Source: Octopus vulgaris
Lineage: Eukaryota
Assembly: GCA_951406725.2 (NCBI GenBank)
Contig: OX597832.1
Location: forward strand, 62,310,001 to 62,374,000
Reading direction: 5' to 3'
DNA: 64,000 nucleotides
Shown: in pieces, positions 42,207 through 42,672 of the stretch
Position numbering within the stretch: the first letter of the stretch is position 1
Layout of the letters: each line of letters opens with the position of its first letter
Made by a program: the position numbers and the translations under genes
Notes under the pieces: generated by a model
What the model was told of the DNA's origin: nothing
The model's input: only the letters and a program-made list of their open reading frames with translations
Database searches by the model: none

Positions 42207-42672
42207 TATAACATAAGAGGGATCAGCCATCTGAATGTGGCTAGGGTCAGGGCGGGGTGGTGGGGGTGTTACTGATGCATTTAGCCCCAGGCGAACATCG
42301 ACGTCACCAGAAGAGCTGACACCATCTCGGTCTCGCCCAGAGATTTATTATTGTTTTCGAACAGATTTTCTACGCCAGTGACTGTGGTTACTGTGAAAAT
42401 CTATATATATCCAGCCTGCAGAGGAAGTCCCTCAACGAAGAGCGGTGCTTACCATACGTTGACAAGAGGCAATAACCTCGAAACCGGTCCGTGTGTAGTA
42501 TCCGTATCTTCGGGGAGGCTGATCTCCCTTTGCTGGCTGGCAAGGACACCGAGATGCTGTCAGCTCTTCTGGTGACGTCGATGTTCGCCTGGGGCTAAAT
42601 GCATCAGTAACACCCCCACCACCCCGCCCTGACCCTAGCCACATTCAGATGGCTGATCCCTCTTATGTTATA
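42207..42672. mobile_element. Fold-back element in (TA)n: 125-bp inverted arms around a hammerhead ribozyme
   Basis: 42207-42331 is the reverse complement of 42548-42672 (1 mismatch); 216-nt loop; (TA)n flanks. Confidence 0.8.
42453..42495 (+). ncRNA. Minimal type-I hammerhead ribozyme with U3-A8 core variant
   Basis: Stem I CATACG/CGTGTG, core TTGACAA, stem II GAGG-CAATAA-CCTC, GAAA, palindromic stem III ACCGGT, cleavage triplet GTC (42487-42489). Confidence 0.72.

Follow-up and report, generated by a model that had tools for sequence, protein, structure and literature searches.

The fold-back insertion in the window, a 64,000-nt stretch of Octopus vulgaris DNA, is very probably a young copy of a non-coding retrozyme family built of 360-nt tandem units and likely copied in trans by Penelope-like elements (PLEs), the fold-back being the footprint of insertion. 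The initial annotation had offered a non-autonomous, ORF-less ribozyme retroelement tied to PLEs as one of its readings, and this reading holds, as the element lacks an ORF and carries a PLE-type insertion footprint.

The inverted arms are as annotated, with 125 bp paired and a single mismatch at 42322/42557. The insertion is composed of an inverted, 5′-truncated partial unit and a direct run of slightly more than one unit, which overlap by 1 nt (42331). The description of the element as set in (TA)n is correct for both flanks, but on the right an intrinsic 3′ tail intervenes between the arm and the repeat. Within this tail four bases are replaced by a 13-nt TA-rich piece, and (TA)n is found only beyond it.

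Table 1. Positions of the features in the window and of the chimera loci elsewhere in the genome. Unit positions are counted from the predicted cut.
Feature	Position	Strand	Remarks
(TA)n target microsatellite, left flank	42041..42210	.	overlaps last TATA of arm
Inverted 5′-truncated partial unit	42207..42331	-	3′ end = fixed end A, unit position ~182
Direct run, slightly more than one 360-nt unit	42331..42716	+	unit positions ~202-360, then 1 to ~217
Type I hammerhead	42453..42495	+	stem I 42453-58/42490-95; core U3-A9 42459-65; stem II 42466-79; G12-A14 42480-82; palindrome 42483-88; predicted cut 3′ of C17, 42489
Right arm	42548..42672	+	ordinary unit sequence to end A, complementary to inverted copy
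3′ tail toward fixed end B	42673..42716	+	end B ~43 nt beyond end A; small private rearrangement
(TA)n-rich right flank	42717..42834	.	
Retrozyme/PLE-type chimeras	L211 2580-2725 (G000:C1:1716079, duplicate 1719659); L263 (C5:142466246-142466350); L285 (C15:13484378)		
Sister ribozymes ending at C17, LINE-like or other partner	L287 (C16:20780102), L290 (C25:40941685), L266 (C9:79850801), L262 (C5:104202121)		

A hammerhead pattern search of the window gave a single match, at the annotated place, reading CATACG, TTGACAA, GAGG-CAATAA-CCTC, GAA, ACCGGT, C and CGTGTG. Its core, UUGACAA, has U at position 3 and A at position 8, as the initial annotation had claimed. Stem I comprises 6 bp, including one U·G, and extends past a bulge (42445-49/42497-501), while stem II comprises 4 bp. 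When the whole insertion was folded, stems I and II paired with probabilities of 0.78-1.0. Stem III (ACCGGU) can form just one pair round a CCGG loop in the monomer, with a probability of 0.0 and at a cost of about +5.6 kcal/mol, whereas two such palindromes pair with each other at a computed -8.3 kcal/mol. The earlier statement that all stems pair thus holds for stems I and II but not for stem III within one copy.

The 6-bp helix I, the 4-bp helix II directly after A9 and the short palindromic helix III make this a canonical type I hammerhead by the definitions of PMC4209133, in which the minimal PLE hammerhead has a long helix II, an extra base between positions 9 and 10.1 and a short helix I. 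The minimal type I assignment was thus abandoned, given the lengths of helices I and II and the lack of an extra base after A9. Rfam reported no hammerhead in the window at E≤10, and none at the gathering score in six sister loci, including those with C3-G8. The same database gave a weak RT-3 match at 43133-43241 (24 bits, gathering score 40.5), which is probably due to chance.

The neighbourhood of the insertion in the window holds other repeats. Two open frames (24822-26333 and 47825-48313) have weak zf-RVT matches below the cut-off (E 8e-4 and 3e-4) and are likely LINE remnants, and dispersed SINE-like repeats, 70-87% alike, lie at 43155-43540, 38239-38625, 44534-45213 and 46144-46510.

The copy number was examined in a genome of 2.8 Gb in 227 contigs. 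The 211-nt loop has 41 full-length matches at 97-100% among the best 40 of 1,401 candidates scored. The stretch from the core through stem II to stem III has 127 exact matches, with none for the reversed control, and the core of the tail has 621. The copies consist of units of 358-360 nt set head to tail, an arm holding as many as 3.5 of them, and are dispersed over more than 20 contigs. Contigs of three organisms contain the family (1,595, 784 and 549 records), with 2 records in a fourth organism. The GC content of the unit, 0.49-0.50, is borderline against the retrozyme criterion of below 50%. The window copy diverges by 0.2% from the nearest other locus and by a median of 3.0%.

We took 90 loci and left out seven (six overlapping and one segmental duplicate). 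Since the remaining 83 had been selected for resemblance to the loop or for an exact ribozyme pattern, the proportions that follow are biased and are not genome-wide rates. The layout is a fold-back at 46 loci, direct at 33 and complex at 4. The 3′ ends of the family fall at two fixed sites, A (~182) and B (~225), about 43 nt apart. Of the 33 direct copies, 32 stop at one of these sites, and 38 of the 46 fold-backs use both, A for one arm and B for the other. The other fold-backs are A+A (3), A+other (3, including the window copy), B+other (1) and other (1). The arms measure 19-1,254 nt, with the A arm longer in 19 cases and the B arm longer in 19, and the inner junction pairs are different in all 46 fold-backs. 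If a run of (TA)5 or longer no more than 30 nt from an end is counted, (TA)n adjoins 54 of the 83 loci, while several insertions at non-TA sites show target duplications of 8-14 bp.

The near-perfect 125-bp arms and the TA flanks had invited the view that the locus is either a MITE-like fold-back mini-element bounded by constant terminal inverted repeats or the source of a hairpin RNA, peculiar to this site, whose loop cleaves itself. We regard this as hardly credible, as the arms are of very unequal length among loci, the outer ends are unequal, the units are arranged head-to-tail, and 33 of the 83 loci bear no inversion. A fold-back DNA transposon was rejected, since the 83 loci lack fixed, symmetric terminal inverted repeats around a constant inside. 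An arm/loop boundary unique to one locus had been named beforehand as a refuting result; the boundary in fact varies from one fold-back to the next. Of the proposed young fold-back mini-element, then, the youth stands, but the fold-back is not the mobile unit. The ribozyme lies in the loop because of the point at which this copy was truncated, and other copies carry it in both arms; the annotated long dsRNA stem and its self-cleaving loop are accordingly by-products of one insertion.

Whether U3-A8 is fixed was checked across the copies. In the window family, U3 is present in 117 of 119 segments and A8 in all 122, although the argument is circular in part: 55 loci entered the sample through the core pattern, in which positions 3, 7 and 8 alone were left free. 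A loose PLE-type hammerhead pattern has 12,891 matches in the genome as against 368 in the control, and a hand count of the first 100 gave 93 U3-A8, 5 C3-G8, 1 C3-A8 and 1 U3-G8. The dominance of U3-A8 among these first-listed matches argues for a trait of the lineage rather than a recent double change.

Further evidence came from at least seven sister families of 353-360-nt retrozymes (L127 6075-6316; L161-L230; L296-L325), which share a conserved tail core and one of which has a GUA cut triplet. A more distant retrozyme family was also noticed (L265, L267, L049). Among the first 100 of 1,257 sister matches, counted by hand, the 3-8 pair is C-G in 55, U-A in 35, U·G in 7, C-A in 2 and U-U in 1; these are copies, not events. 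In a tree of 28 rows (33 were asked for and five left out; the trait columns were kept in the alignment), the C-G rows sit on two separate branches, one of them nested among U-A rows, and a single C-G clade is rejected (p-AU 0.00025). Stem III is self-complementary in 26 of the 28 rows through nine different sequences, three of them by way of G·U, and stems I and II also covary among the sister families. The cores of other copies are therefore not the random, non-covarying ones that had been considered as an outcome. Selection on hammerhead pairing through stem III is well supported by these comparisons. The claim of a compensatory double change under selection survives in that the pair is kept and that sisters switch between U-A, U·G and C-G, but the U3-A8 state is neither recent nor unusual. 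Given nine self-complementary versions of stem III, the ribozyme likely works as a dimer, as the initial annotation had supposed. Dimer cleavage of PLE hammerheads was reportedly described by Lunse et al. in 2017.

The insertions also bear on the template. Within a single insertion, units and arms agree in haplotype in 1,094 of 1,119 pairs at 15 diagnostic sites, where 457 discordant pairs were expected. The 5′ ends are evenly spread, with 4 of 131 within 5 nt of the predicted cut against 4.0 expected. Junctions that seemed to cluster directly behind the cut reflected the boundary of the reference, and the cluster disappeared when a tandem reference was used. The lack of a pile-up indicates that the reverse transcriptase reads through the cut site, and the template would hence be either a re-ligated circle or an uncut multimer. 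On balance we lean towards a circle. Nine natural monomers were folded as circles (25 shuffles each). The ribozyme strand gave z-scores of -2.4 to -6.9, in favour of this reading, and the opposite strand -0.2 to -5.7; the antisense strands of two sister monomers fold well too (-5.5 and -5.7), which weighs against it.

The alternative that the same element is copied from uncut linear read-through transcripts, with cutting rare and circles irrelevant to movement, strikes us as possible though rather unlikely. It accounts for the even spread of the 5′ ends; PLE insertion in vitro needed no hammerhead cleavage (PMC11167929), and one locus was inserted even though its core is mismatched (C3-A8) and each of its arms lacks 1 nt at the cut. 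However, the pairing at 3-8 and the palindromes, kept across families, need selection on the RNA, circRNAs have been demonstrated for coral, mussel and axolotl retrozymes, and five loci of the sister families are chimeras joined at the cut site.

These chimeras were found by searching for ribozymes with two non-family bases directly after C17. The search gave 15 matches, comprising seven rows at five loci that run into foreign sequence, one chance match and seven small changes at the site, four of these a 1-nt loss. No foreign junction was found at the neighbouring offsets searched: +1 gave 5 matches (one an internal deletion); +2 gave 42, with none foreign in the 30 fetched and the same family signature in the other 12; +3 gave none; and -1, for 8-nt stems only, gave one internal deletion. 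One further foreign junction and one 14-nt insert at the cut site came from a separate search.

At three of the loci, a U3·G8 sister is joined to a PLE-type terminal-repeat family just after the acceptor's own predicted cut, with the position of the join uncertain by plus or minus 1 owing to an A-run. The same two families are thus joined three times in the genome, with a different acceptor variant at each locus. Two of the three chimeras are folded back, and their ends are the short and the long end typical of the acceptor. Reverse chimeras, with a PLE ribozyme joined to the 3′ part of a retrozyme, were absent from the first 100 of 206 matches. At the two remaining loci, sisters are joined to LINE-looking sequences, one of them with a zinc-knuckle frame; the remainder of the retrozyme is absent within 10 kb of the first LINE-type chimera. 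The second partner is presumably of a LINE family with an endonuclease-like end inside (TAA)n, an end that has no Pfam match.

The acceptor PLE-type family (L233-L255, L329-L383) is abundant and has U3-A8 with GCAA for GAAA (A13C). Many of its copies have deletions of 1-4 nt just 5′ of the predicted cut, possibly the scars of trimming and re-ligation. No ORF-bearing copy was seen, and junction counts in this family did not discriminate, because fold-back junctions, small deletions and point changes are all frequent around the palindrome. The chimera loci are few and all belong to sister families, none to the window's own. Their simplest reading is that the germ line contains cut RNA ends that become ligated or serve as landing points for template jumping, which suggests that the ribozymes of the sister families really cut and are re-joined there.

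An autonomous partner of the family was sought in several ways. The check for a linked PLE ORF came out negative: in the ~1.3-1.5-kb flanks of the 83 loci, only another unit or flank lies upstream of the unit and there is no shared ORF. No RT+GIY-YIG ORF is found near the element within the window. A GIY-YIG scan scored the best 150 of 6,136 candidates, and comparison of the unit by BLAST with 50 loci (30 GIY-YIG loci and 20 wider or other stretches) revealed no PLE sharing the unit or tail. The lone tail match beside a young PLE belongs to a sister mini-element in its own right, which lies outside the PLE (L127 6075-6316). Of the 621 tail loci, the 30 examined have no upstream coding region in common, and among the listed matches no ribozyme pair 3-5 kb apart frames an ORF; pairs 1.4-3.6 kb apart (one of 3.58 kb) are segmental duplicates.

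The genome does contain coding PLEs with intact 781-aa RT+GIY-YIG frames, which have U3-A8 hammerheads and TA ends and whose tails are similar in length. Their frames carry a CxxxxCxxC linker, as in Neptune/Nematis. In one young family (L121-L126, e.g. G000:C16:20834500-20841000), with many intact 781-aa frames and a U3-A8 hammerhead, there is also an upstream frame of 330-480 aa belonging to no Pfam family, and the 3′ region holds additional tandem repeats that resemble hammerheads. A second, very young family (L127 3082-5479, L141-L160) has copies 99-100% identical, TA ends and fold-backs, and the pattern search found no hammerhead in it.

It is improbable, in our view, that the units are truncated stumps (pseudo-LTRs, pLTRs) left by an autonomous PLE with an overlooked coding copy. 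The ends and tail are of PLE type, and Xenopus retrozymes resemble pLTRs (bioRxiv 10.64898/2026.07.22.740005). Moreover, an ATG-started frame of ~30 codons over unit positions ~159-250 (e.g. L010) crosses end A and the tail, and in other PLEs the pLTR and tail overlap the start of the ORF (PMC3846280, PMC11167929). This frame is partly alike in a distant sister and broken in others, and the short peptide across the tail matched none of the PLE ORFs compared. Against stumps stand the flanks and the ribozyme spacing described above, as do the AT-rich terminal repeats of the coding PLEs compared, which do not resemble the unit with its 49% GC.

A non-coding retrozyme copied in trans, the reading that we prefer, would have a cycle of four steps. 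Multi-unit loci would be transcribed. Two hammerheads would then pair through their palindromes and cut, as the covariation and the chimeras suggest, and the ends would be ligated, probably to a 360-nt circle. A PLE enzyme would nick AT-rich or (TA)n DNA and start reverse transcription from either of two fixed internal positions in the RNA, ~43 nt apart, a proposal that matches the observed pattern of ends. Finally, about half of the insertions come to hold two opposed copies, one per site, which would break off at differing points, so that the junction between them varies from case to case. The window locus is most likely a dead-end insertion; with a single ribozyme, it would release no monomer by itself.

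For the full cycle, in which dimers cut in the germ line, the products are ligated to circles and sometimes to PLE-type or LINE RNA, and a PLE copies the circle from two start sites, we see about an even chance. As part of this joint reading, the two start sites would act on opposite target strands and give a fold-back with a short and a long end. If true, retrozyme circles would be tied mechanistically to PLE enzymes, and weak hammerheads would be seen to work in vivo. The covariation series and the cut-site chimeras are the results most deserving of attention, since the mover of animal retrozymes, cutting by weak hammerheads in vivo and the origin of the inverted repeats and tails of PLEs are open questions in the literature. 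Being young and short, with U-A, U·G and C-G cores and nine palindromes on one scaffold, these families offer a compact test set for dimer cleavage and two-site PLE priming.

A literature search covering the main texts of mostly open-access journals returned no account of this family or of retrozyme cut-site chimeras; hammerhead alignments published as supplements to PMC4209133, PMC7229834 and PMC8557442 could include these motifs. Metazoan non-LTR retrozymes, as described by Cervera and de la Pena in 2020 (PMC7229834), are non-coding tandem units of 150-450 bp with a GC content below 50%, a type I hammerhead and target duplications of more than 4 bp. The window family resembles them in its tandem non-coding units, canonical type I hammerhead and long target duplications, and its unit is close in size to those of mussel retrozymes (350-390 bp). 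The stem III of the axolotl HHR_Amex1 likewise consists of one pair and a palindromic tetraloop, and that ribozyme cleaves well only as a dimer (PMC7229834). In contrast to the retrozymes of that account, the window family has a U3-A8 core, 3′ ends at two sites, a tail and inverted arms; circRNA is known from those retrozymes, and a circle is proposed for the window family.

PLE insertions have been described as partial tandems with an inverted, 5′-truncated copy and a tail of 30-40 bp at one end (PMC8557442, PMC3846280). In vitro, PLE reverse transcription starts at two internal RNA sites whose spacing equals the tail, on AT-rich target DNA cut on either strand (PMC11167929). Like insertions of EN+ PLEs, those of the window family are 5′-truncated, lie in AT-rich or (TA)n targets and have a hammerhead upstream of the 3′ ends. 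Unlike EN+ PLEs, the family has no ORF, a tail of ~43 nt rather than the published 30-40, a canonical hammerhead and a dissimilar unit sequence. U3-A8 has been published for the minimal hammerheads of Schistosoma mansoni Cercyon PLEs, which number ~1,300 copies and show the same core covariation (PMC4209133). There the motifs are mostly single, whereas in the octopus U3-A8 occurs in a tandem retrozyme of canonical type whose sister families include U·G and C-G.

The ligation of a U6 RNA end with a 2′,3′-cyclic phosphate to LINE-1 RNA by RtcB, followed by retrotransposition (PMC6789731), would yield chimeras such as those at the cut site. The donor end in the octopus sisters differs in being a ribozyme cut, and ligation and end-to-end template jumping look the same in DNA. 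The overall conclusion agrees with that of bioRxiv 10.64898/2026.07.22.740005, where retrozymes are viewed as non-autonomous PLE derivatives and where one of nine predicted Xenopus retrozyme dimers cleaved in vitro. The basis there is co-occurrence in Xenopus together with pLTR similarity; in the octopus it is the anatomy of the insertions, with no pLTR match. The U3-A8 core and the PLE fold-back footprint have each been published separately, and the window family is a new, young non-LTR retrozyme that carries the insertion footprint of a PLE.
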